A stretch of DNA of 64,000 nt from a virus (IMGVR_UViG_3300009008_000023:1-64000), one strand, 5' to 3'. Shown: positions 446-63,834, counted from the first letter of the stretch. Notes: generated by a model from the sequence alone, not told the origin. Made by a program: numbers and translations.

Positions 446-1672
446 CTAGAGGCCATATCGCTTATAAAGCTTAAGCCTCTTCTGCATAGTGTTAGCTTTA
501 TGAAGATGGGAATCCATTTGACTAAAGGCACCATACAAATCCGGATCTTTTCTCATATGCATAAGACGACGAGCGTAGTCCATAGGATTCAGAAGTCTTT
601 CTGTCCACCGCGTAAGGCGCTCATTATATGCTCTTTCAACGGTTTTAGGACTTAACGCCCACTTCTCAAATACTATCTTCTTATCTGTATTAGCCTTATC
701 TTTAACGAAATAGCCTAAATAAGTCGGATCATGTGTAGCAGGAGAGCTTACATCAACATGGTCATCAGTGTGTACTGGACGACCAAGCTCTTTTAGCGCA
801 TCCTGTGCTACATTAATGAGCTTTTTATCATTTAAACCTGTAGTACCCTTAATTCCGCCTACTTTACTTGCTTTTTTCTTCATACCTTTTGCTTTATTCT
901 TTGCAGTAACTGCTCCAGCAGTTACTCCACTACCTGATCCTACAGCAGCAACGCCTACAGCAAGTCTTGCATCACTATATTTCTTGTCAGTAGCTAATTC
1001 ACCTATTGTCTCTTCTGTACTTTTATAGCCTTTTTTTAGTTTTTTGCCTACTTCTCGTCCAAGTGCTTTTACTTTCGTAGTATATTTACCTAATTTAGCT
1101 TTTTTACCTATTCCAGCACCAATTCCTCTACCAACAACTGCTCCAGCACCTAATGTACCATATCCAAATATTCGATTATGCTTAGTATTGCCTAAAGTCA
1201 CTTTCGAAGCTGTCCTATAAACTTGTCCTGGATCTATATTCTTAACACTGGCCTGATGCATTCTCTTCATAGCAACATCTCCTAATGCCTTAGCCCGTGT
1301 TTTGGGTAAAATCTTAGTACCAAGCGTCTGAACACTTTTATCAATAGCTTTAAGAGCTGTAGATCCAAAAAACGCCTTTTTACTAAGACCCCTAACACCA
1401 GCAGCGCCTAATCCAAGCGCTCCTAACCCTGCAGCCGCTGCTCCATACCCAGTCGCATATTCACGTGATGAAAAAGCGCCTACATTACGCCAGCCTGCTG
1501 GAACCATTTTCTTCATTTTAGCATCCACAGGAGTTAATTTACGCCCTAATGTACCTATATTTCGATGTGTCGTAGCACCAACCGACTTACCAGCAGTCAT
1601 TACTGCTTTTCCTAGCGACTGTATAGCACCAAAACCTAGCGCACTTTTCTCAAAACCTAATGTTCTTAACAT
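446..1672 (-). CDS. hypothetical Gly/Ala/Lys-rich protein (408 aa), possible internal virion protein
   Basis: Long ORF; GAAAAGLGALGLGAAG low-complexity tract; stop/start overlap with upstream gene. Confidence 0.4.
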   Translation of the reverse strand: MLRTLGFEKSALGFGAIQSLGKAVMTAGKSVGATTHRNIGTLGRKLTPVDAKMKKMVPAGWRNVGAFSSREYATGYGAAAAGLGALGLGAAGVRGLSKKAFFGSTALKAIDKSVQTLGTKILPKTRAKALGDVAMKRMHQASVKNIDPGQVYRTASKVTLGNTKHNRIFGYGTLGAGAVVGRGIGAGIGKKAKLGKYTTKVKALGREVGKKLKKGYKSTEETIGELATDKKYSDARLAVGVAAVGSGSGVTAGAVTAKNKAKGMKKKASKVGGIKGTTGLNDKKLINVAQDALKELGRPVHTDDHVDVSSPATHDPTYLGYFVKDKANTDKKIVFEKWALSPKTVERAYNERLTRWTERLLNPMDYARRLMHMRKDPDLYGAFSQMDSHLHKANTMQKRLKLYKRYGL

Positions 1673-3411
1673 TATTTTGCCTCCTTAGTAATCGTATGTA
1701 CACCTCGTAACTGTACAATCACCTTAGATAGTGAATGCATAGCTTTCTGTACTACAGCTTCATTTACACCAGACATTCCAACTCTAATTGACAATAGTAG
1801 CTTAGCTAATTCTGCTATAACTTTCTCATACATTGGAATTAGCGCCACATACTCTGAAATATTATCTTTGTTTATTAAACCAAGAGCTAATGTAGCATCT
1901 ACAGAGTTCTTATCAGCAAAAGTCGTAATACTAGTAGCAACTTTACTAATCTCGTCCTTAATATCAGTAAATTTCGCATTATATTCTTCTGATATCATCT
2001 TCTCAAGCTTATTTAGAGCCATTGGTGCACGAACATGTGCTAATTTCACTCTTTGGCCATTCTTGAGCTCAGCTATTGCATCTAAATCAGTCTCATGTAC
2101 ATTACAATGAATACAACTCCACATAGCTTCATCATAATCAAGTTCACTTATCTTAGAAGCATACTTATTAAACTCTTTACCATGCAGATAATACATTCCT
2201 GTAGTATCTCGTCCTACATGATGTTCATATAAACCATCATTAAGGTGTTCGAACTGGTGCGTTGTTATTCTCTGCGCTAATTTCACGAATTTCGCATTCT
2301 TAGGTACATAGTAAGAGTCTGTATACACATCATGCTCCACAAATTCAGTTCGCTCGATATTTAGCGGGTAATATGATACTTTCTTTAACCCATCAAATCC
2401 AGCTACTTGGCTCTGACCAACTCCTGCTATCTTCTGTATGCCTACTACTTCAAATGGAGACGTTGCAGTATTACCTACTACGTAAACACCAGTATCACCG
2501 ATACTGGGCTCTGTATGCATCTCTTCAAAGTTATTTATAGCTGTAGGAATTTCATTGTTATCAAAGACCGTATAAGCGCCTTCTTTTGTTAAGAACAGTG
2601 TGCGTTCCCCCAAGTTATAAGAATTAGACTTCTCATAACTAGCAGTTTTCTCAATCTCACTGCTATTAGCTTTTAACTGACATGAATCAGCTTCGGGCTT
2701 ACTTACATCGAGCCTATATGTATAATTTACTCTGCTATTAGCCTGTTTAACTACATAATTACCATTCTCATCCTCATACACGTACTGTCGATCCATATCG
2801 AGCCCACGCATCAGATTTGTGGCAAAGTCATTTACATCGGTAGTCTCAAGATTAGCTATCTTTTCAATTAAATCAGTGTTCTCACTAGTAATAAACGCTT
2901 GCATATTCTCCAGCGTATAATCTAGTAAGGCTTTTCTATCTTCCTCTAGCACTGTACTTGCAACCTTATCAATCACTGATGCATACTTAACACCTGAGTA
3001 ATCAGATTCAGGTTGTTCTAAGTCCTTATTAAATAAGAATTGATCAAACACTCTGCTTGCATCAATCTTATTCTCTTTAAATGCCTCAGGATTGTTGAAT
3101 ATTGCCACTAACGTAGTATCGTTTAACGGTAACGTTAATCCATTCGCAATAATTACATCCATATCAGATACAGCCCTATCATTTATAATCACGGGAATAG
3201 CAGCAACATTTTGTACGTTGATGACACCAACTGCGTAACCTCTTTTGAAGTCTTTATTTTTCCACTCTACTGCTAATTCGAAATTTGATAATGACGGATA
3301 TTCTGATAATAGACGCGTTATAATAGTTTTAACCCAGGTCGTATGATCTGAGTCAACGTAAAATGTCGCTGTTTTCTCCAGGCTTTCCCGGTCTAAAAAC
3401 AATGCATCCAT
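1672..3411 (-). CDS. hypothetical large protein (579 aa), putative virion structural protein
   Basis: Long ORF in minus-strand structural module; no recognisable catalytic motif. Confidence 0.4.
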   Translation of the reverse strand: MDALFLDRESLEKTATFYVDSDHTTWVKTIITRLLSEYPSLSNFELAVEWKNKDFKRGYAVGVINVQNVAAIPVIINDRAVSDMDVIIANGLTLPLNDTTLVAIFNNPEAFKENKIDASRVFDQFLFNKDLEQPESDYSGVKYASVIDKVASTVLEEDRKALLDYTLENMQAFITSENTDLIEKIANLETTDVNDFATNLMRGLDMDRQYVYEDENGNYVVKQANSRVNYTYRLDVSKPEADSCQLKANSSEIEKTASYEKSNSYNLGERTLFLTKEGAYTVFDNNEIPTAINNFEEMHTEPSIGDTGVYVVGNTATSPFEVVGIQKIAGVGQSQVAGFDGLKKVSYYPLNIERTEFVEHDVYTDSYYVPKNAKFVKLAQRITTHQFEHLNDGLYEHHVGRDTTGMYYLHGKEFNKYASKISELDYDEAMWSCIHCNVHETDLDAIAELKNGQRVKLAHVRAPMALNKLEKMISEEYNAKFTDIKDEISKVATSITTFADKNSVDATLALGLINKDNISEYVALIPMYEKVIAELAKLLLSIRVGMSGVNEAVVQKAMHSLSKVIVQLRGVHTITKEAK

Positions 3412-3516
3412 ATAAAATCTCCTTTGTTAGGTCATCAACTGCCTCTAATATAGTAATATACAGTCTTTTTGTCAAGTTCTTTCATTTTTAAGCTAAAAAA
3501 GAGGGCAACTGCCCTC

Positions 3517-5251: not shown

Positions 5252-5340
5252 GAGGTGGATAAACTCCTCTGTCTATAGATTAAAAAAAGAATCACCTAGA
5301 TAGTGACTCATTAATCTTATACCACAAATATCCAATTAAT

Positions 5341-5766
5341 TTACGAAATCTTAACCTTTGTATTTGTAGTTAGGAAAGACCCAGTACCATTGTAGCTCAC
5401 ACTACTATCAGGTATCCATGTCTCTCCTGGTTTCCATGCAGGCGAGACTACAGTAAACTTAGCATCAAATGTAATCCCCTTCAAAATGATCCTCCTACCA
5501 TTATATGTGCTATTAATCGTAAGCTGATTAGTATTTAAGTCATCAATAGTAATAATACCAATACCAGGTATCACATAAGGTGGCCGCATATACGCACACC
5601 CCGGCACTATAACTGTAGATTCATCTCCCTCTAAACATACTGGCACACTCTGTGCCTTAAGATCGCTACTAGCGACAATAATACCGGGAGCCACTGTTAC
5701 TACAGCACCTCCAAAGCTCGGTAGAAATATGGCTTGGTCACCCGATACAATTACATAATCATTCAT
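5341..5766 (-). CDS. hypothetical baseplate-associated protein (141 aa)
   Basis: ORF immediately downstream of spike-like gene. Confidence 0.35.
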   Translation of the reverse strand: MNDYVIVSGDQAIFLPSFGGAVVTVAPGIIVASSDLKAQSVPVCLEGDESTVIVPGCAYMRPPYVIPGIGIITIDDLNTNQLTINSTYNGRRIILKGITFDAKFTVVSPAWKPGETWIPDSSVSYNGTGSFLTTNTKVKIS

Positions 5767-5769
5767 GAC

Positions 5770-6102
5770 TTATTTTATATTCTCTAGTGGATTTAATTCA
5801 CTACCACCTGTATTACTCACTTGTAGATAACTACTGTTATTTAGTTCAGCATATGCTTTAATATGTGTCACGACCTGATTAGCAATTACTTCAGCTAACT
5901 CATTATAAAAATCACGTAATGCAGAGATAGCATCATTATAATCTTCTTGATCCATATCACCAATTGCTAAACTTGTAGCTAACGGAGGTTTATGCAACAG
6001 TGTAATTATATTGAGCCATATACTGCCGGGAGTCGGTGTATTTTCTGAGCCGCCCACTCCATAGAGTATTGCATTCTTTAATACACCTTCATCTAATGCC
6101 AT
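5770..6102 (-). CDS. hypothetical protein (110 aa)
   Basis: ORF in baseplate cluster. Confidence 0.35.
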   Translation of the reverse strand: MALDEGVLKNAILYGVGGSENTPTPGSIWLNIITLLHKPPLATSLAIGDMDQEDYNDAISALRDFYNELAEVIANQVVTHIKAYAELNNSSYLQVSNTGGSELNPLENIK

Positions 6103-6111
6103 TATATCACC

Positions 6112-8184
6112 TTATGTTCTATCTGTCTTAAATGTATTTGGTATGCTGTACGGAGTCCATGCAGCACGTGTACGTGGATGGAAAGGAACAGGGAAACCTT
6201 TATTACCAACACCAAGATGTCCCTTGTGACTATTAAAGAAGTCAACAAAATTATGTGTAGCTAAGAAATGATTATTTATCTTTGTGCCGGATAAAGACAT
6301 AGTTAAATCATTCGCACCTACGTCTGTGGAAAGAGTTACTCCAGTAGCACCGAAATTAAGCTCACACCCGCCCATCGCTGTTTCTATTTTTATTCCTGTA
6401 GCTGTGAACTCAAGTGAGCACAGTCCTAATACAGATGACATGGATATACCTGTTGGGCCTAATGTTATATTATTCCCATATATTTGGTCTTCAATTACAA
6501 TTCCAGTTTTACCGACTTTAATGTACTGGTTAAGAGGTGCAGTTGCTCCATCTACTGTTAGCTTGTGATGAAGTGCATTTATCTCTTCGGTAACCTTAAT
6601 ATCTTTTATTTCATCTTGAGTGACTTTTTCATATAGATTAACAGCATTACCTAGCTGTGTTTCCATACTTACGTTGGCAAAATTAACCTCATGCCTCCAC
6701 ATACTCAAGTCTTCAAGTAATCCAAAACCTTCATACAAGCTTGAATTAGTAGCTACATCCCTAAGCTTCTTATGATATAGTTCTAATGCAACACTCATAC
6801 GTTCATCAAATGTTGTTACACCGCTGTCCATGTGTAATCTATAGAAACTATTAACTTCGTCTATATTTATTGTATCACTAGGTAGTAGTTTACCAAATCC
6901 TTGCTCATAGTTAGTAAGCTGTAAAACATCATTGTATGTAACATTCCAAAACTCGCTGTTATTACTTAATGTCTCAGTATGATGAACATCACTAGTCGTT
7001 GTTGTCGAGTGCATACGTACACGCTTAAACGTATTAAGCGTTGTAAAAGGCTCACCCATATTAAGACGGCCCAAACTAGTAGTATAAGACTGATCAGCGT
7101 CATCTTCATTGTACTGATGCCAGCCATCACCGGGTTTTACATTAAGCCCACCACCAAAGCATAAACGTGAGCTATAAAGTTCACCAGATGTAAAGTCAAT
7201 GCCACTGTTTCTTATAAAGTCAGTACTTAAATGACCAATACGCTCCATGTATGTTAGTGGAGACGCACCATCAATACCATCTTTATCTTTTAGCCTAAAG
7301 TCATAAATTGTACCTTCAGGATATTTGAACGTCTGGAGAGCTAGCTTATCTTTCTCAATAGTGTGTTCATTTTGCCTACCAATACGCTCTTCAGTAAATA
7401 CACTTTTCTTCTTGTCAGTACCACGGCTCTGTTGTGTACGTCTCTCGTACACATGTCCTGGTATTTCACTACTATTACTGTATGCAATGTGTCCTGCTAG
7501 TTTAATAACTCTAGCATTATACTTGTCAGCTAATGGAATAAGACTTAGAAGAGATTCCTCTTCAAGTCTAAGATCATCATCCACAACGCTTTCTTGCTGC
7601 TTACCATCATATACAACATAGGAATGAAGTATCCTATCATCCTCACTAGATACTGGGTGAGAGTCATAATATCGTTTCTTATCCTTTGATCCTGGCGTCA
7701 TATTATAAATACGCTTGGCTACAATCTCAGACCTGCGCTCTTCAGCGTGTAACTCATGAGATGCCCAAGGATTCGTACTTATTAATATAACACCTTTAGG
7801 CTTAATCTTAATCAGGGGATTATAATAACCACCAGCAGCAAGTATAATCTCGCCCTCTTCACGACCATCAAGCATGAATCTACCATCCTGTCCATACTCA
7901 CTAGTCCCAGCATAATACGATAATATTACATACTCATCACGTAAGCCTAGACGTGCACATATGACACGCTGCCCTTTACGTGGAATTCCAAACATTCCAC
8001 TACCTAATGTGTCCTTAGGTATTGGACTTGGTAATTCCATAGGAATAGCCGCAGACATACTAATATTATCTGTCTGGTCATCTAATAACACATACACTTT
8101 GGTACTTTTACCAAGATCTACCTCAGTAACGGTGCCTAGGTGCACCGTTATTGATTCGCTTCCTAATTGATCAAAATATCCCAT
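6112..8184 (-). CDS. baseplate central spike protein (gpV/VgrG-like) with C-terminal beta-helix
   Basis: N-terminal GTVTEVDLGKSTKVYV OB-fold signature as in P2 gpV / Mu gp45; Gly/Thr-rich repetitive C-terminus. Confidence 0.45.
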   Translation of the reverse strand: MGYFDQLGSESITVHLGTVTEVDLGKSTKVYVLLDDQTDNISMSAAIPMELPSPIPKDTLGSGMFGIPRKGQRVICARLGLRDEYVILSYYAGTSEYGQDGRFMLDGREEGEIILAAGGYYNPLIKIKPKGVILISTNPWASHELHAEERRSEIVAKRIYNMTPGSKDKKRYYDSHPVSSEDDRILHSYVVYDGKQQESVVDDDLRLEEESLLSLIPLADKYNARVIKLAGHIAYSNSSEIPGHVYERRTQQSRGTDKKKSVFTEERIGRQNEHTIEKDKLALQTFKYPEGTIYDFRLKDKDGIDGASPLTYMERIGHLSTDFIRNSGIDFTSGELYSSRLCFGGGLNVKPGDGWHQYNEDDADQSYTTSLGRLNMGEPFTTLNTFKRVRMHSTTTTSDVHHTETLSNNSEFWNVTYNDVLQLTNYEQGFGKLLPSDTINIDEVNSFYRLHMDSGVTTFDERMSVALELYHKKLRDVATNSSLYEGFGLLEDLSMWRHEVNFANVSMETQLGNAVNLYEKVTQDEIKDIKVTEEINALHHKLTVDGATAPLNQYIKVGKTGIVIEDQIYGNNITLGPTGISMSSVLGLCSLEFTATGIKIETAMGGCELNFGATGVTLSTDVGANDLTMSLSGTKINNHFLATHNFVDFFNSHKGHLGVGNKGFPVPFHPRTRAAWTPYSIPNTFKTDRT

Positions 8185-8226
8185 GTCTTAATTATAACAA
8201 TTACACTCTCATAGGTCAAGCGTTAA

Positions 8227-8580: not shown

Positions 8581-9204
8581 ATGATACTTAATGAACTTAC
8601 TCACGAGTGTATAATATATTCGCAGTTACCTAATCATGTACCAGACAAAAGTGCTGATGACATCTTTCCGCCAACAGTATCTACTAACCCACATCTAAAT
8701 GGCACTACCATTATTGTTAGTAAGAGAAATACAGACAAAACACACCTCACTCCCAAGGAAATGATACCAGCTACGCGTAACACAATGGGAAATATTACTG
8801 CGTACAGCACAGATAAACCAAGTGTGGATACACCTGTACATCTACGACTGTATCAAGCAATGCCCAACCTCAACTTCTTCATTCATGGCCACGCATACAT
8901 TCATGATGTACCAACCACTGAGCATTACTACGCCTGCGGTGACCTTCGTGAAGCTAATGAACTATTCAAACTTATCTCAACTAATGCTAATGTTTCCTCA
9001 CAAGTAGGTGCCATCAACTTATGTAATCACGGCTTTTTTCTTTACGCCGAAACTTTAGAGCAGTTGCAAATTCTAGTTAACTCGCTTAAGTTCACAGAAA
9101 AACCTATTGCGGAACAAATTTCTTCTGATGACATGATAATACATCAGCAAACTCAAGTAGAATTTAAACGTAAAGGACATACGATACACAAGGACATTGT
9201 ATGA
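8581..9204 (+). CDS. hypothetical protein (207 aa)
   Basis: ORF; stop overlaps next start (ATGA). Confidence 0.4.
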   Translation: MILNELTHECIIYSQLPNHVPDKSADDIFPPTVSTNPHLNGTTIIVSKRNTDKTHLTPKEMIPATRNTMGNITAYSTDKPSVDTPVHLRLYQAMPNLNFFIHGHAYIHDVPTTEHYYACGDLREANELFKLISTNANVSSQVGAINLCNHGFFLYAETLEQLQILVNSLKFTEKPIAEQISSDDMIIHQQTQVEFKRKGHTIHKDIV

Positions 9205-10042: not shown

Positions 10043-10083
<41 letters not shown>

Positions 10084-10329
10084 CTATCTACTCAACACTC
10101 AATACTCACATGCTATGTCCACATTTCCACCACATTCACGGCATAACACACTCACAAAACTCATAAAAACACTCACTCGGCCCACAATTTAAAAAGTGGC
10201 CGGACAGACGGCCACAGTACAAGTCCGTAACTCACATCATCCCAAGTACTTATGTGGCCACCCATATCAGTGGCCGACACGCTAAAGCACAAAAACATAA
10301 ACAACTCAATCATAACACTTTACAAATGT

Positions 10330-14997: not shown

Positions 14998-16022
14998 AGA
15001 AATGCCCTTTATGGTGGTAACACCATATCGAAACTTCTCTAATTGCTGGGATATCCTAATTATAGGACGATCAGCAGCGAAGCCTAATCTAATTAGTTCT
15101 TGCATTAGTAAGTATTATTTGTTATATTTACTATAGTTACTAACTAATTAGGAGTTTTTTTATGATAGGAAAACAATTTGGAAACGATCTTGTTATAGAT
15201 AGAAAAGTTGAACAAAGATCATATGGTAAATTAACCCTTTACCTTGTTGAGTGCCAAAAATGTAGCAACAAAAAATGGGTTCAAAAATCCGCCCTAGTTA
15301 ATGGAAATATAAAGTGTAGAGTAGGTATATGTAACAGACAAGTACCTGATTTCACTAATCAAATATTTCATTATTGGACTGCTTTAGAATATGTAAAAGA
15401 TAAAAAATCACGTGGATGGTTATGGAAGTGTAAGTGTAAATGCGGGAATGTGGGATATGTCCGCACTCATACATTACAATCTGGACAATCAAAGTCTTGT
15501 GGTTGTTATATGAAAGAACAACTGTCTCAACGTCAAACACTTACTGACTATATAGGACCAAAACGTGAAATTTATAGAAATTACAATAGAGCCTCTAATA
15601 AGAGAAATTATGAATTTTTATTAACTGAAGAACAATTTTTTGAACTCATTGAACAGCCATGTTTTTACTGTGGAATAGAAAAGTCAATGGTTTTTTATCG
15701 ACAAAACTATAGATACAATGGTGTTGATAGAGTAGACAATTCTATAGGATACACCATAAATAACACAGTGTCATGTTGTAAAAATTGTAATAACTCTAAA
15801 AGTACACTATCTCAACAAGAATGGTTTAATTGGCTTAAACAAGTTTATACCTATCAGAAAGCTCAAGGAACGTTCAACGACTAGTCGAAAGACGTACACC
15901 CAAGTGGGTGGAAATGGGAAGGCTCCTATTAGTTTAGGAGTTTGATATAGTCTGATCTACATAGTAATATGTAGCAGCTCACAAGAGCGGGCTGAGATTA
16001 ACGACCTCAGTTAAACACAATG
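14998..16022 (+). mobile_element. group I intron (1025 nt) interrupting nadV, carrying an HNH homing endonuclease ORF
   Basis: Joining T14997 to A16023 restores the frame and the conserved NAMPT motif VQ(V/S)W-YP(T/I)T(I/V)ATNS; 5' exon ends in U, intron ends in G. Confidence 0.7.
15162..15884 (+). CDS. intron-encoded HNH homing endonuclease
   Basis: C-terminal GVDRVDNSIGYTINNTVSCCKNCNNSK HNH motif; own RBS; AT-rich codon usage. Confidence 0.8.
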   Translation: MIGKQFGNDLVIDRKVEQRSYGKLTLYLVECQKCSNKKWVQKSALVNGNIKCRVGICNRQVPDFTNQIFHYWTALEYVKDKKSRGWLWKCKCKCGNVGYVRTHTLQSGQSKSCGCYMKEQLSQRQTLTDYIGPKREIYRNYNRASNKRNYEFLLTEEQFFELIEQPCFYCGIEKSMVFYRQNYRYNGVDRVDNSIGYTINNTVSCCKNCNNSKSTLSQQEWFNWLKQVYTYQKAQGTFND

Positions 16023-16978
16023 ATCCTACTACAATCGCCACCAATAGCCATATGGCAAGAACTAACATTAACCAGTATCTTGAAGATACTGGTGACCCCA
16101 CACTCATTGACTTCAAGCTTCACGACTTCGGTTACAGGGGAGTATCATGTGATGAGCAGGCCGGCATTGGTGGAATGGCTCACCTCACCTCCTTCATGGG
16201 TACTGATACTGTTAAAGGTATCATAACCGCGCAACAGTATTACAATGCACAGATGTGTGGATTTTCCATTCCGGCCAGCGAACACTCAACCATGACTTCA
16301 TGGGGGAAGGATCATGAGCTTGATGCTTTCCGTAACATGCTCGATCAACATCCCACAGGACTAGTTGCATGTGTGAGTGATTCATTTGACATCTATCATG
16401 CATGTGAACAGTACTGGGGCACTGATCTTAAAGATCAAATCCTCGGAAGAGACGGCACTCTTGTCGTCCGTCCTGACTCTGGTGACCCCATCGAAGTAAC
16501 AGAGAAAGTGTTTGAAATTCTCTGGAAACAGTTTGGTGGAACCACCAATGAGAAGGGATACCGTGTTCTTGATCCCCACATCCGCATGATTCAGGGCGAC
16601 GGCATAGACTTAAATATGCTGGCTATGATTCTTGCCAACTTTAAGGACAAGATGATTTCGGCTGATAACATCGCGTTTGGGTCTGGTGGGGGACTTCTCC
16701 AGCAGTTCAATCGTGATACTGGTCGCTTTGCTTTCAAGTGCTGTCACGCTATTATCAATGGCGAAAGCCGCGACATTTTTAAAAGCCCTATTGCGGGTAG
16801 TAAGCCTTCGAAGAAGGGTTATCTCACTCTACAGAAGAATGATGGTGGCGCGTTCGAGACCATCAATGATAGGGTATTACACTACTCTGATGAAAACTTA
16901 CTTGAGCCGGTTTATGAGAATGGCGTCCTTTTAAAGGATCAAACATTCGCTGAAATAAAAGCTCGTATCTTGGTATAA
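16023..16978 (+). CDS. nadV: nicotinamide phosphoribosyltransferase (NadV/NAMPT), exon 2
   Basis: YPTTIATNSH...KLHDFGYRGVS...GSGGGLLQ... collinear with NAMPT central and C-terminal regions. Confidence 0.8.
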
Positions 16979-18721: not shown

Positions 18722-18742
18722 TTTTACGGTATAAGATAAATG
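18722..18742 (+). promoter_or_regulatory. phage promoter motif (tttttaCGGTATAAGATAAATG)
   Basis: Directly after terminator 18673-18712. Confidence 0.55.
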
Positions 18743-19004: not shown

Positions 19005-19039
19005 GGTCGAGGGCAATCCCGCTCTCGACCATTTTTTTT
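19005..19039 (+). terminator. rho-independent terminator
   Basis: GGTCGAGGGCAATCCCGCTCTCGACC hairpin plus T8. Confidence 0.75.
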
Positions 19040-19060
19040 ACCTTAAAAATTGGAATAAGA
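19030..19060 (+). promoter_or_regulatory. phage promoter motif variant (tttttACCTTAAAAATTGGAATAAGAAAA) upstream of sigma factor gene
   Basis: Shares the extended upstream ACCTTAAAAAT element with sites 31240 and 54385. Confidence 0.5.
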
Positions 19061-19100
19061 AAAAAGAAGGAAGTCACACAAAACTTGTTTAGGAGGTTGC

Positions 19101-20012
19101 ATGAAATTAAAGGAATTAGTGGATGCGCGTGATTCAGAGTTTTCACGAACTCTTCAAACGACTTTAAACAAGTACTCAGTACTTTCAAAAGCAGAAGAAG
19201 AGCCCATTGCTAAAAAGGCATTTGAAGGCTGTGAAACTTCAAGAGACTTGCTAGTTTTTCACAATCTTCGATTTGCAATTAAGTGGGCCTTAGACTCTCA
19301 TCAGGGGGCTGGTATAGAGTTTACTGATGCTACATCAGTTTGTATTTTAGGCCTTATTAAGGCATCAAAACGCTTTGATTACCAACAAAACACAAAGTTT
19401 ATTTCATATGCAGTTTGGTGGATGAGGGCCGGTATAACTCAGGCATCAAGAACATCGGACACAGTACTGCTTCCTGCTAATCGTTACACTCAGAGAATGA
19501 AAATACGCACTTCACGTTCTAAACTGTACCCATTGCTTGAGCGTATTCCAACAGTGGATGATATCTCACGCGATACTGGAATCGACGTTGAATCAATTAG
19601 ACTCATTAATAGTCACCATGTTATTAGTATTAATGGTCCCATACAAGGACCGGATAAGTCGGAAAGAGATGACCCTAGATTCCAGAGCGAAGATTTTGTC
19701 TCTTCTTGTCTTCACCCTGACTATAGTGGTTATAACAAACTCGCAGCCCTCAATGCCTTAATTAATACACAAACCAGAGAGCTTATAAAGGAAATAACTC
19801 TCAGTAAAGTGGATCAGCGTGAAGCTTTCATCTTAGATCGACGCTTTGGGTTAGGGTGGTTAAATCCAAGGCATAACGAACCACAGTCTTTAGAGAGTGT
19901 CGGTAAGGAATTGGGGATTAGTCGTGAGCGCGTTCGCCAGCTTCAAGCCAGGGCTATCTCTAAAATTGAAGGTTCATTGGAACGGCTAGATATTACTTCT
20001 ATGGCTAGTTAA
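19101..20012 (+). CDS. sigma-70 family RNA polymerase sigma factor
   Basis: Region 2 signature FISYAVWWMRAGITQA (cf. FSTYATWWIRQAITRA) and region 4.2 LESVGKELGISRERVRQLQARAISKI helix-turn-helix. Confidence 0.75.
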   Translation: MKLKELVDARDSEFSRTLQTTLNKYSVLSKAEEEPIAKKAFEGCETSRDLLVFHNLRFAIKWALDSHQGAGIEFTDATSVCILGLIKASKRFDYQQNTKFISYAVWWMRAGITQASRTSDTVLLPANRYTQRMKIRTSRSKLYPLLERIPTVDDISRDTGIDVESIRLINSHHVISINGPIQGPDKSERDDPRFQSEDFVSSCLHPDYSGYNKLAALNALINTQTRELIKEITLSKVDQREAFILDRRFGLGWLNPRHNEPQSLESVGKELGISRERVRQLQARAISKIEGSLERLDITSMAS

Positions 20013-20040
20013 TTTAAGGGGCTTCGGCCTCTTTTACCGT

Positions 20041-20062
20041 AGATTTTGGTATAAGAATTTTG
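20041..20062 (+). promoter_or_regulatory. phage promoter motif (gattTTGGTATAAGAATTTTG)
   Basis: Consensus match. Confidence 0.55.
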
Positions 20063-22360: not shown

Positions 22361-22395
22361 AAAATTATCCTTATTAATTGGAATAAGAATAATGA
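22361..22395 (+). promoter_or_regulatory. promoter: TTGACA -35 plus TGGAATAAGAATAATG motif variant
   Basis: TTGACAcgtaaaaattatccttattaatTGGAATAAGAATAATGAGG. Confidence 0.45.
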
Positions 22396-31650: not shown

Positions 31651-31679
31651 ATAAATAGCTTGACATTTGAGTATTCCGT
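31651..31679 (+). promoter_or_regulatory. consensus sigma70 promoter (TTGACA-17 bp-TATAAT) driving the intron HNH ORF
   Basis: cTTGACAtttgagtattccgtatgTATAATtag; perfect -35 and -10 hexamers, 17-bp spacer. Confidence 0.7.
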
Positions 31680-31694
31680 ATGTATAATTAGTAC

Positions 31695-32168
31695 ATGGCA
31701 AAACAACGAAAATACACAGATGACCAGCTTAGATCAGCAGTTAAGTCAAGCCGATCAATACGTCAAGTTCTTGGTAAACTTGGACTAGCTCAAGCAGGTG
31801 GAAACTATACTTCGGTTACAAACCAGATCGCTAGGTTGCAACTTGATTCATCTCACTTTTTGGGCCGTGGGCATCGAAAAGGATCAACAACTCCAGTTGT
31901 TCCGAAACGCCCATTGTCTGAAGTGTTAGTAAAGCATTCTTCATATCAATCGTATAAGCTTAAGAAGCGATTGATTAAAGAGGGTTTGCTAAAACAAAAG
32001 TGTGATAGTTGTAATTTAGTAACTTGGTTACAAACAGACATACCTTTAGAACTGTACCATAAAAACGGTGTAAAGTCTGACAATCGAATTGAAAATCTCC
32101 AACTGTTGTGTCCAAACTGCCACGCTCTTACAAACACGTATAGAGCAAAGAACTCTAAGAAAGTGTAG
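31695..32168 (+). CDS. HNH endonuclease (intron-encoded, within tRNA-Leu intron)
   Basis: C-terminal ENLQLLCPNCHALTN HNH motif. Confidence 0.75.
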   Translation: MAKQRKYTDDQLRSAVKSSRSIRQVLGKLGLAQAGGNYTSVTNQIARLQLDSSHFLGRGHRKGSTTPVVPKRPLSEVLVKHSSYQSYKLKKRLIKEGLLKQKCDSCNLVTWLQTDIPLELYHKNGVKSDNRIENLQLLCPNCHALTNTYRAKNSKKV

Positions 32169-34628: not shown

Positions 34629-34705
34629 GGCTCTATAGCTCAGTCTGGCGAGAGCGGCGGTCTCTAAAACCGTGTCAGTCGTGGGTTCAAATCCCACTGG
34701 GGCCT
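34629..34705 (+). tRNA. amber-suppressor tRNA, anticodon CUA (tRNA-Sup)
   Basis: Acceptor GGCTCTA/TGGGGCC; D arm GCTC...GAGC; anticodon stem GCGGT/ACCGT; loop C-U-CUA-A-A with U33 and A37; T arm GTGGGTTCAAATCCCAC. Confidence 0.65.
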
Positions 34706-34725
34706 CTTATCACAAAGGAGTAAGT

Positions 34726-37963: not shown

Positions 37964-38491
37964 ATGACTCGAAGAACACATCGTGTAAGCTTTGATAGCT
38001 TACTACCAGATTTATTTAACGAAGCACAGAACAGTGCTTTCTTAGCAACAGAAACATTATTTGATCGTGCAATACGGGACATGTTTCCTGATGCACATAA
38101 ACAACTTGGATGCTCTCTTGTAACTAAAGGGGCATATCCAAAAACTAACGTTCTTTCTTTAGAAAAAGAATTTAAGATTGAAGCGGCGGTTCCCGGTCTT
38201 ACTCGAGAAGATATTTCTATCGAGACTAAACAGACCGATATGGGGGTCGTTTTAACTATTTCTGGGGACAAGCAAGATGAAGAAAATCTTGGAGATGTAC
38301 GCACTAATTTTTATGTGTATCATGAACTCAAGAAATCTAAGTTTGCTCGTTCCTTTTTAATTCATGATAAAGAAAAAGTAGAATTAGATAAAATTGACGC
38401 CTCAATTGAAAATGGAATTCTAACTATTAGTATTCCTAAAACTGAGGCAGAGATTAAGAAAAACGAAATTAATAAAATTAACATAAAATAA
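37964..38491 (+). CDS. small heat-shock protein (Hsp20/alpha-crystallin family)
   Basis: Alpha-crystallin domain pattern: EAAVPGLTREDISIE...LTISGDK...FARSFLI...IDASIENGILTISIPK. Confidence 0.8.
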   Translation: MTRRTHRVSFDSLLPDLFNEAQNSAFLATETLFDRAIRDMFPDAHKQLGCSLVTKGAYPKTNVLSLEKEFKIEAAVPGLTREDISIETKQTDMGVVLTISGDKQDEENLGDVRTNFYVYHELKKSKFARSFLIHDKEKVELDKIDASIENGILTISIPKTEAEIKKNEINKINIK

Positions 38492-55235: not shown

Positions 55236-58200
55236 TTATTTATCTCCGAATTCATCTCCATAAATATAAGCAGGGATTGGGTCTTTTCCTGCAATATCTC
55301 CGTATGCAGCTTTGGAAGCACCTTCTTGTATTGCTGCTTTAATTCTATTCGTATAGAAACGTGTTAACCAATCTTCACTATCAACATTTAACGTTTCGAT
55401 TGATTTAAAATACGGTTTATATTTAATTGTGTCAAGACTTTCTTTTGTTCTTTCCTTATTTATTTTATCTAAATAAGAAATAGTTGACTTATCACCGCGC
55501 AAGAATCCGCTATTACTGGGAGCTTCCATAACTTCAGCATTATCTGAAATCCCTCGAATAACAGTTTCTAAGCCCTTTTTATAGAAGTCATCTTCATAGA
55601 TAGTATTAATCTGATCAACAATATACTGTTGTGCAGCTAAGTGTCCTTTATATTCGGCTAATTCTTGAGGTTTAATAGAACCGTTTGTAAGAGGGTCCCC
55701 AGGTGACACCGAATCTCCAACCTTAACAATAATAGTTCTTGAACTTGGAATTGTTATTGTTTTGTCATTCTTAGTCCCATACCCTTCAATTCGAACATCA
55801 TAACCACCCACAACGTTCTTTCGAATTGACTTAACTTTGCCTTTAACGGGAGATAAGACTGCTTTACTCTTAAGTTTTTTAGGTACTTCTAGTAGCTGAA
55901 CAAGTCTTGGGAATCCTTCAGTAACACCGCCGCTAGTACTTACTGCTGCGCCTCCTGTATGGAAAGTTCTCATAACTAATTGAGTACTTCTTTCAGTAAG
56001 GGCTTGTGATTCTATAACTCCAATGTTTTCACCAAGATTAGGTAATTGACCGTTTGGCATTAATCCATAACAGAGTTGGCAAACACCGTTAGAAGTTTTA
56101 CAAGTTAGGGGACTTCTTACTTCCACTGTTTGTACTTTTGCGGCTTTTAATTTCATTAAAATACGCGAATCAATCAAATCGTTCTTTTTTGCAACGCCTT
56201 TTATTGACTCCGCTAAGTGTCGGTCCATTACATCTTTAGAATTCACCGAAAGCTCAATACCTTCATGAGTTTTACAGTCTTTTTGCGTTACAAGTAATCG
56301 ACGTGTTACACCAAGCAACGCTTTATTAAGTGCTCCAGAGTCAGCAGTGTTTACCGCTCGGTCAACTGTTCCTCGACGTACACCATAGATGTGGTTCCAG
56401 TAACTTGCTGTATCAATTCCCTCACCATATGATTTAAGAATGGGTACAGGGATTGGGTTACCATCAAGGTCTTGCACAACTCCAGGTAAAGATAAGATCT
56501 GCCGTACATTACCTTTTTTACCTCCACCAACACTGCCAGACTCAATCATTTCATAAATATTATTGGTTTTAGCTAAGGCTTTATCCTGGGCTTTTTCAAC
56601 TTTACTCGTTAAATCAATATAAGCATTAATTCTCGCAGTGCCTTTTAGTTTTTCAATTTTCGGTAATTCTTTTTCATACAATTTATCACGATAAGATTTA
56701 TCTTGCACAAAGTCAGTGATAGAGATGGTATGTGATCGTTGATGCGCATAAGTGTTACCAAGCTCTTTAAATCTATTTGCAACTTTACCAAAATCAGAGC
56801 GATACTCTTTACCAATCTGCTCAAACAATTTGCCTACAGCTTTTTTATTCATTTGACGAGTATAGTTTTTAAGTGCTGTAGGTAATACTTTATTAATTTC
56901 GTACTGCCCAATAGTCATCTTCTTACCGTGTAAAGTAAAGACATCAGTTGGGTGTAACCCCGCCGCTTTGGCTTCCGTTATTGATTTAAATGTTTTGCCT
57001 GTGGCTTTACCAATCTTACTTAAATAGTAAAGACCGACGATGTACTCTTGAGAAATTTCTGGTACAACAGAGTTATCACCGTGTTTGAAGATAATATTAC
57101 TAGGCAGAATCTTATAAGCTTCGGTTACAGCCTCCGCACCAACAGGCACATGAACTGCCATAGTATCACCATCAAGGTCAGCATTGAAACCAGAGAAAAT
57201 TATGGGGTTAAGTTTAATTGCTTTACCATCAACTAATACGGGTTTAAATGCTTGTATACTATGTTTATGTAAACTAGGCGCTCTGTTAAGTAATACAGGC
57301 CGATCTTTCACAATTAATTCCAATGCTTTGTCAGCTAATTGTGTGTCTTCATTTACTTCTTGAAGCGCTTTACCGGCTTTCATTCCCTGTCTTACAAGCT
57401 CTTTAATAATAAAAGGTTGGAAGATAGTTTTAGCCATACCCTTAGGAATACCAACTTCATCAATTCCCAGGTCAGGTTCAACAGTAATGGTACTTCGTGC
57501 TGAAAGTTCTTGTCGTCTCCCCCACGTAGTTGAGTGAACGAATCCGTGCTTAACTTGTTTACCAGTAAGCTCTTTAATTATGCCTTTGTATTTCTTTTGT
57601 GAATAAGTAACAGGGTCAATAAATCCTTGTTGGGCTTTTATCGCTTTGTACAAAGAGTGATCATATTGATGTTGCTCTTCTTGGCTTAATTTAGCTTTAA
57701 TTGCTTTATAGTTAGTATTAATAACGCCTATGTCTCGATAGTGCTGATTAATATCAGACACCATTAAGTCACCACTTGGTAGTGGATAAATTGGTCGATA
57801 CACAGGAGGTAATACAGGAACAAATTTTGTTAGGTATGCTTGTGTAGGTGTATATCCTAAGTCTTTAAGTGCTTCTAGGTATCTTACTTTATTATTAAGT
57901 TTATTAATATTAGATTCAGGGGCATCTTTCAATTCTTTTCGAAGTTTTCGCAGTTCAGTAGTAATATCAATAGATTTTAATCCCGCTGTAATTGCATCTA
58001 CACCTGTTTTACCATCTAACTCAAGTTCACCTGCCATTACTTTATCAAACTTATCTTCAGTTAAATCTAAGAGTTTGGTAATCGCTCCTTCATACATTGG
58101 ATTAGGAAGCTTTTTAACTAAGTTAATATGAGTCCACTTTTCACCAGCTAGACCACCGGTTATCTCTCTATCAAACAACCCGCCTTTACGTTCTGCAAGA

Positions 58201-61200
58201 TTCTTACCTTTAAGCATAGCGCCTGGGTCAGTTAACTCACCGGCAGACCATTCTTTAATAGTAGTGTCTGTTAGAGGGAAGATTCTAAATTTACTACCCT
58301 TCTTTTCAACATTAACGCCTGCGGCTTTTAAGTAGTTAACCATTTTATCAAATACAAAGTTAGACTCAGGTGGAGCTGGAGCTAATCCTAGTTGTAAATT
58401 ACGCCAATACTCATCATTCTTTCTACCTTTAATAGTAGACATTTCTTTAAGAAGATTTTTAGTGCCATGTGCTAACATAGAGTAAGTAAGCATCGGGTCA
58501 ATTTTTTGTGCGCCTTTACCTACAGGCAGTTCGTTAATATCGTAAGACCCGAAGGAGTGCTCTCCCGCTTTCTTCTTAACAATATGACGCAGTTTCATAA
58601 AGTACTGATTACCTACAAAGATGGACTTTTCAAAGGGCTTCCCTGTAGCTCCGTCAGTTAAAGTTTCATTAGCTTTAATACCAAGCTTTTTCATTTCTGC
58701 GTAAACTTTTGTAGCATTATCATCACCAGAGAAACTTTTAACTAAATAGGGCTTACCTGTTTTCTCAGCAATCTTTCCGGCAGCAGTTTCTAATATCTGT
58801 CCAATATTCATACGTCCCGGAATACCGTGGGGATTAACCATAATATCCACAGAAGTTCCATCTGGACGATGAGGTGCTTCTGAGTCAGGGATAATTTTAG
58901 TGATAATAGATTTGTTTCCAAACCTACCACTTAGTTTATCTCCCTCTTTAAAGGGGTGAACAGCTTTAATATAAATATCAATATTACGTCCATTTTGACG
59001 AACGTCAATTACTTCTCCTGCCTCTTCTTCATCCCACTCAAGTACCTTTTTAACAAAAGGCGCCATTGTAGCTTTACTGAGTTTTCGAATAACTTTTTCT
59101 TCTTCAGATAATTCCCGTTCTTCTAAAATTGCTACAAGTAGTTCTCCTAGCTGAAATATTTGGCCCTTTTTAGGAAGACCTGTATCCGCTAGTTTTTGTT
59201 TATTAGTTTTAGTTAAAATTCCTGGATACCAAGCAATAAACTTTGAAACATCAAATTGAGTTTTCGCGGGTGTAATAAATAAGTTCTTTTTGTGTAAAGC
59301 TGAATGGCTCAACTTTTGTGCAGCACTCTCAGTAATTACAGCACCATCTTCAAAGTTATACCCTTTCCAAGGCATGAAGGCCACTGTAAGGTTTTTACCG
59401 ATAGCTAAAGTACTGTCTTTATTATAGTTATTGTCTGCTAGAGGAGTATTCCACTTAACTTTATCGCCAACTTCCACAAGTGGGGTGGAGTTTAAGAAGC
59501 CTTCCTGATTAAGTGGGAAGTCCTTATATAATCCACGTTTAACAACTTCACCGTCAGTATCTCTTTTAATAAAAATGTAATCTTTAGTGATTTTAGTTAT
59601 TTCACCTGTAGGTTTAACAACTTTACCATCAACTTCTTGCTCGCCAAGAATAGGGTCTAAGAACCCACCAGCGAGCTCTTCAAAAGTACTATCTTCACCA
59701 AGCTTAGTTTGTACTAAAGGAGCTTCTCTGTCGATTAAGGGCAAGGCTTGCTGAATCATTCGTCCACCCATAGAAGCACGGTTACCTTGTGTATTCTCTA
59801 TAAAGGGTACAAGGTTTGTAGGTATTGAGAACATAGAAGATGCTGAGAATAGGTAGTAATCCACTTCTTTCGGTAGAACTTCTTTAGTGTGTCCTTCATG
59901 ATAGATTTTAACTTTAGGATTTTTTGCTCGAACATTTCCACCAGAAGTTATTTTGTACTGGTCAGGAAACCCTACTTTACTAAAGTAAAATGTTTTGGGT
60001 GTTATGTATGTCTTTTTACCCTCTTTATTAATAACGAGGGTTTTAATATTTCTACCCTGCTTAAGAGTATCCAGTGAAAGCCCTAGTGTGATTCCTACTT
60101 TACCACTTTCTGGAGTAGCTAATGAATCTAAGAATCCCAAGTGTGTGGGGTGCACATTACGAGTTTCCATAGTCACTGCGTGCATAGATCCAATACCACC
60201 TGTACCCATAGGTGAAGTCTTTCGCCAATCGCCTAAGATGGTCACAGGATTCGTTTGAGGGGGCGTTGCGGACAGGTCACTGTCAGTGAAGAAGCTTTTA
60301 ACAGGCTTACCAAAAGTAGTAGAAGAAATTACTTCCCGAATTTTGTCTTTAAGGTCAAGGTTACGACTTAACTTTTTAGTAATCACTTCATTCTGTTTTT
60401 CGAAGTGTGCAACCAGCAAATCATCAACAGCATAGATTTGTTTGAATAATAAGCTGTCTCGGTCATCCGGCTCAGCTTTGCCTTTTTCAATGTCTAATAG
60501 TTTAACTGAGGACTTTAGAAGTAAGTCACCATTAACATTTTCTTTCTTTTCACCTAGCGTTATTTCTGTAACTTCAGGATCAACTTTTGCATAGGATCCA
60601 AAATATTTTCTAAGCCCAGCAATAACTTCATTATAATCTGCAGGAACTTTTTTATAGAGCTTCTTGTAGATATTAGTCATTTCGCTAACTTCAGTATTCA
60701 GCGCGCCCTTTTTATTAATCTCTACAAGCTTGGCTCCCCATGCCTCAGTAATTTTATCATCGCCTACGTTTAGGACATTAAGCAGTGTCCATAGCCTGTG
60801 TTTACGATTATCAAAGATCACATAGAAAATGTGTGAGATAGGGTCTAGCTGCATCTTAAAATTGTAACCAGGGAATAAGTTAAATTCATTTTCTAACTCA
60901 CCGTTAGCTTTAACTCTAGCATAAATGCCTGGTTTACGACGTATCTGATTAGTGGTTTGGTATTCGTTACCATCCAGGATAACAGTAAAGCGATTAGTTA
61001 ATTTAGGGATATAACCGATACGGATATTTTCCCGTTTATCAACGGTCTTTCCTGTTTCATTATCTGTGAGCTTGAATGAAGCTAGAATCGGAACTTGCCA
61101 ACTCTTACGATTTAGCTTCAATTCTCTCTGTGTTGGAAAATCATTGCTTTCGAGCTTGTCATCTAAGCGTAACCCAGTGAGTTCCAATTGTTTACTTTTA

Positions 61201-61298
61201 CTCTTGATTGGGAAGCTGTTATTTATTATATTAATAACAGTTTCTTGGATGACTCTGTTTTGCTCACGATGGTTAAGGGCGTTGTCCATTAATTTCAC
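55236..61298 (-). CDS. single-chain multisubunit-type RNA polymerase: fused beta (N-terminal) and beta' (C-terminal) catalytic subunits, 2020 aa
   Basis: Beta motifs [16 protein letters not shown] (cf. ANRALMGANMQRQAVP) and [21 protein letters not shown] (cf. [20 protein letters not shown]); beta' motifs [48 protein letters not shown] (cf. RAPTLHRLGIQAFEP...NADFDGDQMAVHVPL). Confidence 0.85.
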   Translation of the reverse strand: [2020 protein letters not shown]

Positions 61299-61305
61299 CT
61301 TTTAG

Positions 61306-61331
61306 TATTTTTTTGGTATAAGAAGAATGAG
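61306..61331 (+). promoter_or_regulatory. phage promoter motif (tttttTTGGTATAAGAAGAATGAG) at divergent junction next to RNAP gene start
   Basis: Consensus match incl. ATG. Confidence 0.6.
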
Positions 61332-61648
61332 ACCAAGTTCTTAAAATATAGACATTTTAAGGACTAAAGTCAATAAAAGGAGGGACTTGAGCGAAAAAAA
61401 TTCAACCTCTTCATCTTCTTCTGCTAAAAACACGATAAAAGTGAAGTCCGAATCGAGGGACACTATGTCTAATATGTCGGTTTATCGGACTTCTAGCAGA
61501 AAAGAACGACCTTAACCGAATTAACGAATGTCCGAGTATGAAACTGAAACCAGAGATGAAGTTAGAGAAACTCTTAAGGAGTTTGTCAACAATCTCACAG
61601 ACTTGATCTACTTAATGATCAAGAATAGAAATAGCAAGGATTCATTGA

Positions 61649-62691: not shown

Positions 62692-63834
62692 ATGGAAACC
62701 AGTATTAAAAAGCTACATAAGATTGAAGAGGCTTTAAAAGCTTTTTTCGTTGAACGTGACGATGAAGTCCATGGACTTACTTTAGCTTTATTAGCACGAG
62801 TTAACTTGCTTTTGCTAGGACCTCCAGGAACAGCTAAAAGTAAAATAATTAACGCTTGGAGCTCCATGATTCATGGAGCTTCAGTTTTTAGTTGGCTACT
62901 GACCAGGTTTAGTACGCCAGAAGAGTTGTTTGGTCCTTACTCTTTAAAAGGACTAGAAGAAGATAAGTTTATTCGTATCACTAAAGGAAAACTTCCTGAT
63001 GCAAATGTTGTCTTCTTAGATGAAATTTTTAAGTGTAATCCAGGAGTGCTTAACTCTTTGCTTACTGTTTTGAATGAAGGTGTGTTTTTTAATGATGGGG
63101 AACCAGTCCCATTAGATTTGCTGACCACAGTTGGTGCTTCTAATGAGATTCCTGAGGATGAAGATAATCTTCAGGCTCTCTATGATCGCTTTGTTCTTAA
63201 GTATAAGGTTATGCCTGTACGAGAGACTGCGAACTTTTTACGAATGCTGGCTAATTCAGAACAGTTTGTTTCCTCAGTATCTTTAACCTTTGATGAAATT
63301 CGCGCAATTCACCAGAAAGTGGATGGGATTGAATTCACAGGGGTAGCTCAAGAAACCTACAGAGATCTTAGAGCGGCTTTCCAGAAGAAGGGTATTATTG
63401 TAACGGACCGTACCTATAATACTTCAGTAAAACTTCTTAAGGCTGAGGCTCTTTTTCATGGGCGTGAGGAAATTCAAGAAGAAGATTTTGAAATTTTACA
63501 GCACGCTTTCTGGATTAATCCTGAACAGCACAGGATTGTTTACAGTGAAATTCTTGCTGTAACTAATCCTGAGAAGAACGAAATCCTCGAAATTTTCACA
63601 GATGCTGTGGAAGTTGCTAACACAATTGTCGGCAGAGAAGATGCTGCGCCTAATGAATGTTTAGAAGTCTCAAATAAGCTTAAGACAGCTAACAAGCGAT
63701 TAAATGAGATTGCTAAGCGAATGGATCGTAAAGGCCGTAATGTCGATGATGTAAAGAGAAAGAGTTTAGAACTTGAAAACCTACTTGGCCGTATTTTCCG
63801 AGAGAACTTAAGCCTCGGTAGTGACGTGTTATAA
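62692..63834 (+). CDS. MoxR-like AAA+ ATPase
   Basis: Walker A LLLGPPGTAKS; Walker B/sensor VVFLDEIFKCNPGVLNSLLTVLNEG typical of MoxR/RavA. Confidence 0.8.
   Translation: METSIKKLHKIEEALKAFFVERDDEVHGLTLALLARVNLLLLGPPGTAKSKIINAWSSMIHGASVFSWLLTRFSTPEELFGPYSLKGLEEDKFIRITKGKLPDANVVFLDEIFKCNPGVLNSLLTVLNEGVFFNDGEPVPLDLLTTVGASNEIPEDEDNLQALYDRFVLKYKVMPVRETANFLRMLANSEQFVSSVSLTFDEIRAIHQKVDGIEFTGVAQETYRDLRAAFQKKGIIVTDRTYNTSVKLLKAEALFHGREEIQEEDFEILQHAFWINPEQHRIVYSEILAVTNPEKNEILEIFTDAVEVANTIVGREDAAPNECLEVSNKLKTANKRLNEIAKRMDRKGRNVDDVKRKSLELENLLGRIFRENLSLGSDVL

Follow-up and report, generated by a model that had tools for sequence, protein, structure and literature searches.

The 64,000-nucleotide stretch of viral DNA analysed here (the window) encodes a bacterial-type RNA polymerase (RNAP) and also an ORF that an earlier note on this DNA had read as a phage-encoded factor of the sigma-70 family. 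If this reading is correct, which polymerase does the factor serve, and which promoters does it recognize? Phage sigma factors are textbook material, and the setting of this ORF is more interesting than the protein itself. According to two reviews of the jumbo phages (PMC7824862, PMC13282480), the phages that encode an RNAP are without sigma homologues, and those that encode a sigma are without an RNAP. The multimeric-RNAP-encoding Caudovirales (mReC) are a lineage described in 2020 in a paper that mentions neither sigma factors nor promoters (PMC7481178). The mReC phages are an exception to the RNAP-or-sigma scheme, and no analysis of their sigma/RNAP/promoter system was found in the literature searched. 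The window comes from a phage of this known lineage: both beta and beta' are recognised by cellular profiles, and the contig is that of a tailed phage, with a CIS_spike_tip gene in the same region. The features discussed below are collected in Table 1.

Table 1. Coordinates of the sigma gene, the RNAP gene and the associated signals (window numbering unless another record is named).
Feature	Position	Strand	Details and basis
Sigma-70-family CDS	19101..20012	+	303 aa; profile, PDB-sequence and fold evidence
Regions of the sigma (approximate)	1.2, aa 14-35; sigma2, aa 45-118; sigma3, aa 126-170; 3.2 linker, aa 172-209; sigma4, aa 210-296		3.2 linker disordered and acidic
Shine-Dalgarno AGGAGG	19091-19096	+	4 nt 5' of the sigma ATG; direct sequence reading
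Class A variant GGAATAAGA	19052-19060	+	A for T at the inferred -12; 49 nt 5' of the sigma ATG
Intrinsic terminator	19005..19039 (stem 19005-19030)	+	10-bp stem, 7 GC pairs, T-run; terminator scan
Weak hairpin AGGGGC-TTCG-GCCTCT, then TTTA	20017..20036	+	Possible terminator just 3' of the stop; direct reading
Class A promoter of the upstream unit, GGTATAAGAtaaATG	18728..18742	+	Motif alignment
Class A promoter of the downstream unit, GGTATAAGAattTTG	20048..20062	+	Motif alignment
Fused beta-beta' RNAP	55236..61298	-	Candidate sigma partner; Pfam domains, alignment to E. coli beta/beta'
Class A promoter divergent from the RNAP gene	61315..61329	+	Arrangement kept in 38/76 RNAP loci
Class B TTGACT-N17-TATATT	61345..61373	-	Precedes the RNAP gene; shared by 17 closer relatives
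Class B TTGACC-N17-TATAAT	8191..8219	-	Upstream of the 690-aa ORF 6112-8184
Class B TTGACA-N17-TATATT	3447..3475	-	After a terminator, upstream of ORFs 1672-3411 and 446-1672
Class B TTGACA-N17-TATAAT	31660..31688	+	Perfect consensus; 6 nt 5' of the ATG of an HNH endonuclease ORF
(G/C)CTAAAAT sites, Arash record	1600, 101324, 128082, 137629, 139405
(G/C)CTAAAAT sites, D69 record	137817, 140540, 186280

The ORF starts with ATG, and both peptides on which the earlier reading had been built, one like region 2 and one like region 4.2, are found in its translation. The terminator and the variant of the phage promoter motif that were said to precede the gene are also present. The variant, GGAATAAGA, differs from the phage motif by one base and occurs again at position 22380 of the window. 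The terminator separates the sigma transcription unit from the upstream unit; the hairpin behind the stop codon received no call in the terminator scan.

HMM searches with the three sigma domains bore out the family assignment for regions 2 and 4, whereas region 3 stayed under its threshold. Pfam Sigma70_r4 (PF04545) was matched at aa 234-289 (E 3.5e-11, 42.9 bits, cut-off 24.1) and Sigma70_r2 (PF04542) at aa 54-118 (E 9.7e-8, 32.1 bits, cut-off 24); Sigma70_r3 (PF04539) reached 17.7 bits, with a cut-off of 25.3. The Sigma70_r3 domain is present in sigma groups 1-3 and absent from the ECF sigmas. Region 3 of the protein aligns without a break to solved SigA chains, and it forms a helical domain (aa 126-170, pLDDT 75-88) in the AlphaFold model. 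The NCBIfam superfamily model TIGR02937 was passed with 71.3 vs 42.9 bits, and PHROG 351 ('RNA polymerase sigma factor') matched at 2e-34. The NCBIfam models of RpoS, the RpoD C-terminal part and SigB could be aligned over their full length (E about 1e-30), with scores far under every equivalog cut-off. For example, the RpoS equivalog TIGR02394 gave 105.7 vs 378.7 bits, and RpoD_Cterm gave 103 vs 354 bits, which places the protein outside the primary group 1 (RpoD/SigA). It has no region 1.1 or N-terminal extension and begins about 13 aa before region 1.2.

Structural comparisons gave the same picture. Solved SigA and RpoS chains align continuously with the protein from region 1.2 to region 4.2. 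In the AlphaFold model (mean pLDDT 76), aa 20-118, 126-170 and 210-296 are confidently predicted as three helical domains, connected by an acidic linker that is disordered; the best Foldseek matches of the model are the sigma-S and sigma-A chains of holoenzyme structures (E 1e-10). The matches to the sigma domains are significant, and nothing points to an anti-sigma or an unrelated HTH regulator, which the earlier note had named as findings that would speak against its claim; an anti-sigma and a plain HTH regulator were both rejected on the Pfam domains, the alignment to PDB chains and the residues described below. The assignment to the sigma-70 family is thus upheld by HMM, PDB-sequence and fold evidence. 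Judged from sequence and predicted fold, the ORF is a genuine initiation factor of this family with a group-2-like architecture (regions 1.2, 2, 3 and 4), and its product is almost certainly a functional sigma.

The residues of the sigma were numbered on E. coli RpoD by local alignment and compared with those of the 119 nearest homologues; the functional roles given to them are those of the sigma-70 literature. The -10 melting residues Y430, W433 and W434 are kept, and so are K426, F427, R436 and T440. In region 4.2, R584, E585, R586, R588 and Q589, the five residues that read the -35 element, are those of sigma-70 and are the same in at least 117 of the 119 homologues. Short insertions are found in the 3.2 linker and in region 4.1-4.2. 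Other positions are unusual. Region 2.2, the core-binding helix, carries L404A, I405T and G408C, where the 119 homologues and E. coli show little or no variation. It also carries Q406S, E407V and N409I, at positions that vary among the bacterial homologues too, and it retains D403 and the neighbouring GL..A...F pattern. The use of region 2.2 as decisive proof of a non-host partner was rejected, since only L404A, I405T and G408C are unique among the changed positions. In regions 2.4/3.0, Q437A and R451L again affect fixed or nearly fixed positions (Q437 is found in 119/119 homologues), and A438G is also present. These three belong to the helix reading promoter positions -12 to -14, so that a non-canonical -10 specificity, such as for the class A promoters described below, is possible. 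H455N and E458T affect the extended -10 contacts, and both positions are also variable among the homologues.

The nearest relatives of the protein are bacterial group 1/2 sigmas, with 35-38% identity over about 88% of the length, particularly the Aquificota sigmas of 280-330 aa (Persephonella, Sulfurihydrogenibium). It shares regions 1.2, 2, 3 and 4 without region 1.1 with the bacterial group 2 and short SigA/RpoS-like sigmas, such as E. coli RpoS (5IPL) and B. subtilis SigA (7CKQ), and has the same -10 melting and region 4.2 residues; unlike them, it is phage-encoded and has unique substitutions in regions 2.2 and 2.4/3.0. Searches of 5.8 billion proteins, IMG/VR and the JGI metagenome contigs gave no orthologue with more than 38% identity. 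The protein search returned one identical fragment and a next best match of 38% identity, the peptide scan of IMG/VR returned nothing, and the JGI metagenome scan reached 38% at most. However, the same collections do hold relatives whose RNAP is 55-89% identical, which argues that this sigma is not a conserved partner of the RNAP. Synteny walking from the neighbouring RtcB and 428-aa genes led to 52 viral loci, none with a sigma, which are thus unrelated phages. Extension of the contig to the left added only 445 bp. No second sigma was detected in the window or in the RNAP-flanking loci with phmmer and with HMMs of the two sigma types known from the Salmonella phage Arash (gp196 and gp10).

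The polymerase is a 2020-aa protein in which beta and beta' of a bacterial-type RNAP form one chain, with the Pfam domains Rpb2_6, Rpb1_1, Rpb1_2 and Rpb1_5; the fused phage RNAP mentioned in the earlier note is therefore real. It belongs to a large metagenomic family of fusions of about 2000-2100 aa, whose contigs reach 228 kb. Relatives are encoded on more than 577 IMG/VR stretches, and many metagenomic homologues are interrupted by inteins (Pfam PF14528, PF14890, PF05204). The beta' zinc-binding domain (C70-C88) of E. coli has no counterpart in the family, and the same is true of SI1, SI2, SI3 and the beta' C-terminus. The closest isolates by RNAP (about 30% identity) are the Vibrio phages D181, D148 and D69 and the Salmonella phage Arash; two of them, Arash and D69, have an RNAP gene that is divided into two parts. 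A MoxR AAA+ ATPase is encoded beside the RNAP gene (62692-63834, +). Past the window end, the same contig encodes a VWA protein, a reverse transcriptase (RVT_1) and a glycosyltransferase (L003:880-8598), and farther along ClpP, a cold-shock protein and an adenylosuccinate synthetase.

Two surfaces of this enzyme bear on the choice of a sigma: the flap-tip helix and the clamp helices, which dock sigma4 and sigma2, respectively. The flap-tip helix is conserved (EEKVIRKLS vs EEKLLRAIF in E. coli). The clamp helices are present as well; within an ungapped stretch, beta' R275 is replaced by I and R278 by N relative to E. coli. None of the 12 aligned family members has a basic residue at position 275, and 10 of the 12 have a hydrophobic one. 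Because R275 is a contact of sigma-70, its loss suggests that the phage core is probably unable to use the host sigma.

Sigma genes accompany this type of RNAP in two isolates. Arash has two sigma-like genes, the full-length gp196 and the 234-aa gp10 in the structural module; beta, beta' and gp10 were detected in its virions by mass spectrometry (PMC10585845). Orthologues of both genes were found in the complete genome of D69 by HMM search. The window thus resembles Arash and D69 in having a sigma-70-family gene together with an RNAP of the same bacterial-type family; moreover, the gene of its sigma, like those of the full-length type in the two isolates, follows a class A-like variant and belongs to the non-structural genome part. 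In contrast, the RNAP of Arash and D69 consists of two proteins and is not fused, and the full-length sigma of the Arash clade has a non-canonical region 4.2. The similarity between the sigmas is also limited. The window sigma shows 26% identity to gp196 over 149 aa (pairwise E 4e-11), confined to the N-terminal half (aa 14-155), and region 4 cannot be aligned; gp196 matches the sigmas of D69 (D69_0246) and of the contig L209 at E 1e-62 to 1e-65. The window protein, which has no full-length similarity to any of these three, is closer to the bacterial sigmas than to gp196, and no similarity to gp10 was found.

Other phages offer partial parallels. SPO1 of B. subtilis (gp28 and gp33/34), T4 (gp55) and the RNAP-less jumbo phages likewise encode sigma-70-family specificity factors, with which they reprogram the host core; unlike the phage studied here, they are without a polymerase of their own. 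Phage sigmas serve in temporal cascades, as is partly established knowledge and partly reviewed (PMC7824862, PMC13282480). The phages phiKZ and AR9 have a multisubunit RNAP without alpha and omega and a dedicated specificity subunit, gp68 and gp226, respectively. These subunits lack sequence similarity to sigma, and the RNAPs comprise 4-5 very divergent subunits, whereas the sigma and the core of the window are both recognisably bacterial-type.

The promoters of the window fall into two classes. The class A motif, GGTATAAGA, is present in 17 exact copies vs 0.76 expected from the base composition, so that the phage motif of the earlier note is real. All 17 copies run in the direction of the genes around them, and 14 of them are found outside ORFs of at least 100 aa. 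The general form is GGTATAAGA(A)nnATG with the aligned consensus wwTTtGGTATAAGAAwwATG, and the alignment of the 17 copies has zero information content at the -35 location. With TATAAG taken as -12 to -7, positions -14 and -13 are occupied by two invariant Gs, and +1 is the G of the conserved ATG. The proposed extended -10 element TGgTATAAG is thus correct in its two Gs, whereas the T of 'TG' is present in only 9 of the 17 copies. The core GGTATAAG recurs in relatives whose RNAP is 45-58% identical and, in the wider comparison of RNAP loci, 33-69% identical; in Arash it lies upstream of non-structural genes. Among 76 RNAP loci on viral contigs it is divergent from the RNAP gene in 38 and on the same strand in none. 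It also forms dense clusters on RNAP-bearing contigs (L142 with L216, L180 with L220, L123 with L223). The full-length sigma genes of three lineages lie behind class A variants, namely GGAATAAGA in the window, GGAATAAGT in D69 and AGTATAAGT in L209. By these comparisons, conservation of the class A core extends through the RNAP lineage to members with about 30% RNAP identity.

The class A motif was also used to place other sigma-bearing contigs. More than 500 IMG/VR contigs carry comparable bacterial-type sigmas, and class A is not enriched among them (12 vs 15.7 expected), which indicates that most of these loci belong to other phages. A contig with three class A motifs (L126; IMGVR_UViG_3300028372_000017) carries a different bacterial-type sigma with 31% identity to the window sigma, and this suggests that the second sigma is an exchangeable module. 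In that gene (L126:7664-8476) the codon for the invariant W433 is TGA (YAV-TGA-WIRQ); either this phage and its host read TGA as tryptophan, or the gene is defective.

The class B promoters have a -35 element and follow the near-consensus TTGACa-N17-TATAwT, which matches the host sigma-70 consensus. They are found upstream of the RNAP gene, of two other identifiable minus-strand units and of several plus-strand genes. Upstream of the RNAP gene, a score of at least 10/12 was reached in 18 of the 76 loci, nearly all of them from the closest relatives, and in 0/76 coding controls. Across the window, class B-like sites are not above chance (10 vs 9.1 +/- 3.2), and the argument for class B therefore rests on the position of the sites, 7 of the 10 being intergenic and upstream of a gene, and on their conservation. 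The genes behind the class B promoters gave no Pfam or PHROG matches and no homology to Arash or D69 ORFs. In two of the promoters (31660-31697, +, TATAATtagtacATG; 8184-8219, -, TATAATtaagacATG) the -10 hexamer ends only 6 nt 5' of the ORF ATG, so that either the transcripts are leaderless or the true start codons lie farther downstream. Accessory genes were noticed at 37964-38491 (+), 8581-9204 (+) and about 5300-5800 (-) of the window; the set includes an Hsp20 small heat-shock protein gene behind a class B promoter, a class II aldolase-like protein and, on the minus strand, a contractile-injection-system spike-tip protein (L089). The structural-strand operons of Arash and D69 carry the motif (G/C)CTAAAAT instead, which precedes the portal, the RNAP parts and structural proteins. 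This motif is a candidate late promoter that appears not to have been described so far.

From the family, architecture and residues of the sigma, the two promoter classes and the co-occurrence in two isolates, all of which were observed, we infer its partner, promoter class and timing. In the preferred explanation, to which we give an even chance, the sigma would be the specificity subunit of the phage polymerase and would act in the second step of a cascade, with class B a likelier target than class A. The fused beta-beta' RNAP is its probable partner; the host core is an unlikely one. As to the promoters, class B or another type with a -35 element might be read, with slightly less than an even chance, and class A is on the unlikely side. 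To dock onto the phage RNAP, the sigma would use its sigma2 domain for the clamp helices and its sigma4 domain for the flap-tip helix. In the first step, the -35-less class A promoters (GGTATAAGA..ATG) would be read by another activity conserved in the lineage, for which the small sigma packaged in virions with the RNAP is the candidate in Arash. This first step is borrowed from Arash by analogy, because searches of the 64-kb window and the flanking loci revealed no small sigma of the gp10 type. The sigma gene itself would be expressed as a class A-variant unit. In the second step, the sigma would take the phage polymerase to the class B promoters before the RNAP gene and others on that strand. 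The sigma probably steers the phage's own enzyme in this way, which would make the transcription system of the phage self-contained. The aligned residues suggest that class B fits the -35-reading residues of the sigma better than class A does. There is also a weak indication, from two clades only, that the second promoter class co-varies with the sigma type: the window combines a canonical region 4.2 with TTGACa-N17-TATAwT, and Arash and D69 combine a non-canonical one with CTAAAAT.

The same sigma on the same phage RNAP could instead read class A as an extended -10-type promoter (G-14, G-13, TATAAG, start at the conserved ATG) and regulate its own gene through GGAATAAGA. This was the pairing proposed in the earlier note, and we consider it rather unlikely. 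Class A does resemble a -10 element of the sigma-70 type in its T-12 and A-11 and in the G that is invariant at the extended -10 position, and the odd residues of the sigma (Q437A, A438G, R451L, H455N, E458T) sit where sigma-70 contacts -12 to -15. By established knowledge of -10 recognition, the invariant G at the inferred -7 speaks against host sigma-70 as the class A reader; phage sigmas, moreover, normally read phage-specific and not host-consensus promoters. However, the class A core is lineage-wide and is shared by clades in which hardly any DNA-facing position of the full-length sigmas is the same; the DNA-reading helix is WWMRAGITQ in the window vs WWV(M/Y/N)QR(Q/I)(L/M)K in Arash, D69 and L209. 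The sigma gene also lies within the class A regulon, behind its variant, so that the factor would be required before its own synthesis, and the intact -35-reading residues would lack a target in class A. On these three counts the pairing with GGTATAAGA is not favoured.

Quite unlikely, in our judgement, is a sigma that binds the host core and either boosts the sigma-70-like phage promoters or redirects the host enzyme, with the phage RNAP using another factor. The bacterial-type sigmas of RNAP-less large phages are thought to bind the host core, and the comparable sigmas on more than 500 contigs in which class A is not enriched would agree with such a role. A similarity to bacterial group 1/2 sigmas is expected for a bacteria-derived factor that might still bind the host core, and D403 and the GL..A...F pattern are kept. 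Since class B equals the bacterial consensus, the host holoenzyme would moreover be its simplest reader. However, region 2.2 is altered at L404A, I405T and G408C as well as at Q406S, E407V and N409I, the genome invests in a polymerase of its own, and the isolates with this RNAP, Arash and D69, always have sigma genes. A clamp helix without R275 and R278 would also need a non-host factor.

That the ORF is not a working sigma (a decoy, an anti-sigma, a plain HTH regulator or a decaying recent acquisition) would be consistent with the lack of a conserved orthologue in the searches and with the Pfam score of region 3, but it is very improbable given the intact frame, the strong ribosome-binding site, its own promoter and terminator, the alignment of all four regions with Y430, W433, W434 and the region 4.2 residues intact, and the confident model of sigma2, sigma3 and sigma4.

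The window, Arash and D69 represent a third arrangement, in which a bacterial-type core is combined with a bacterial-type sigma and a deeply conserved promoter core. As a tentative proposal, somewhat less probable than the preferred explanation itself, the mReC phages may carry a complete and portable bacterial-type transcription system that is orthogonal to the host. It would comprise a single-chain core without the zinc-binding domain and the host-sigma contacts, and sigmas of its own that read the ancient GGTATAAG and a second class linked to the sigma type; the ORF described here would be the exchangeable 'second sigma'. If the pairing is true, it would provide a minimal single-chain core for testing function without alpha and omega, a natural case of co-evolution at the sigma-core interface and, as a candidate, an orthogonal module for transcription in synthetic biology. 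Since both Arash (Salmonella) and D69 (Vibrio) are in culture, the pairing is within direct experimental reach.

Other genes of the window include the MoxR ATPase, RtcB, 22 tRNAs and genes of NAD salvage and nucleotide metabolism. The nicotinamide phosphoribosyltransferase ORF (16052-16978, +) covers only positions 173-493 of the 500 in its profile, and an HNH endonuclease ORF (15162-15884, +) lies directly 5' of it. Bases 15868-15918 show 94% identity to Vibrio phage D181 and 89% to a stretch of a Pseudomonas phage annotated 'Intron_gpI'. These observations suggest that the gene is split by a mobile intron; Rfam at the gathering threshold made no intron call near 15162-16978 and found only tRNAs in the window. 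The 22 tRNA genes are located among small ORFs (33764-54301, +). One of them (34629-34706, labelled 'Pyl' by ARAGORN), with the anticodon CTA, would decode the amber stop. An intergenic microsatellite, (AGTA) repeated about 10 times, occupies positions 10044-10085 (+).
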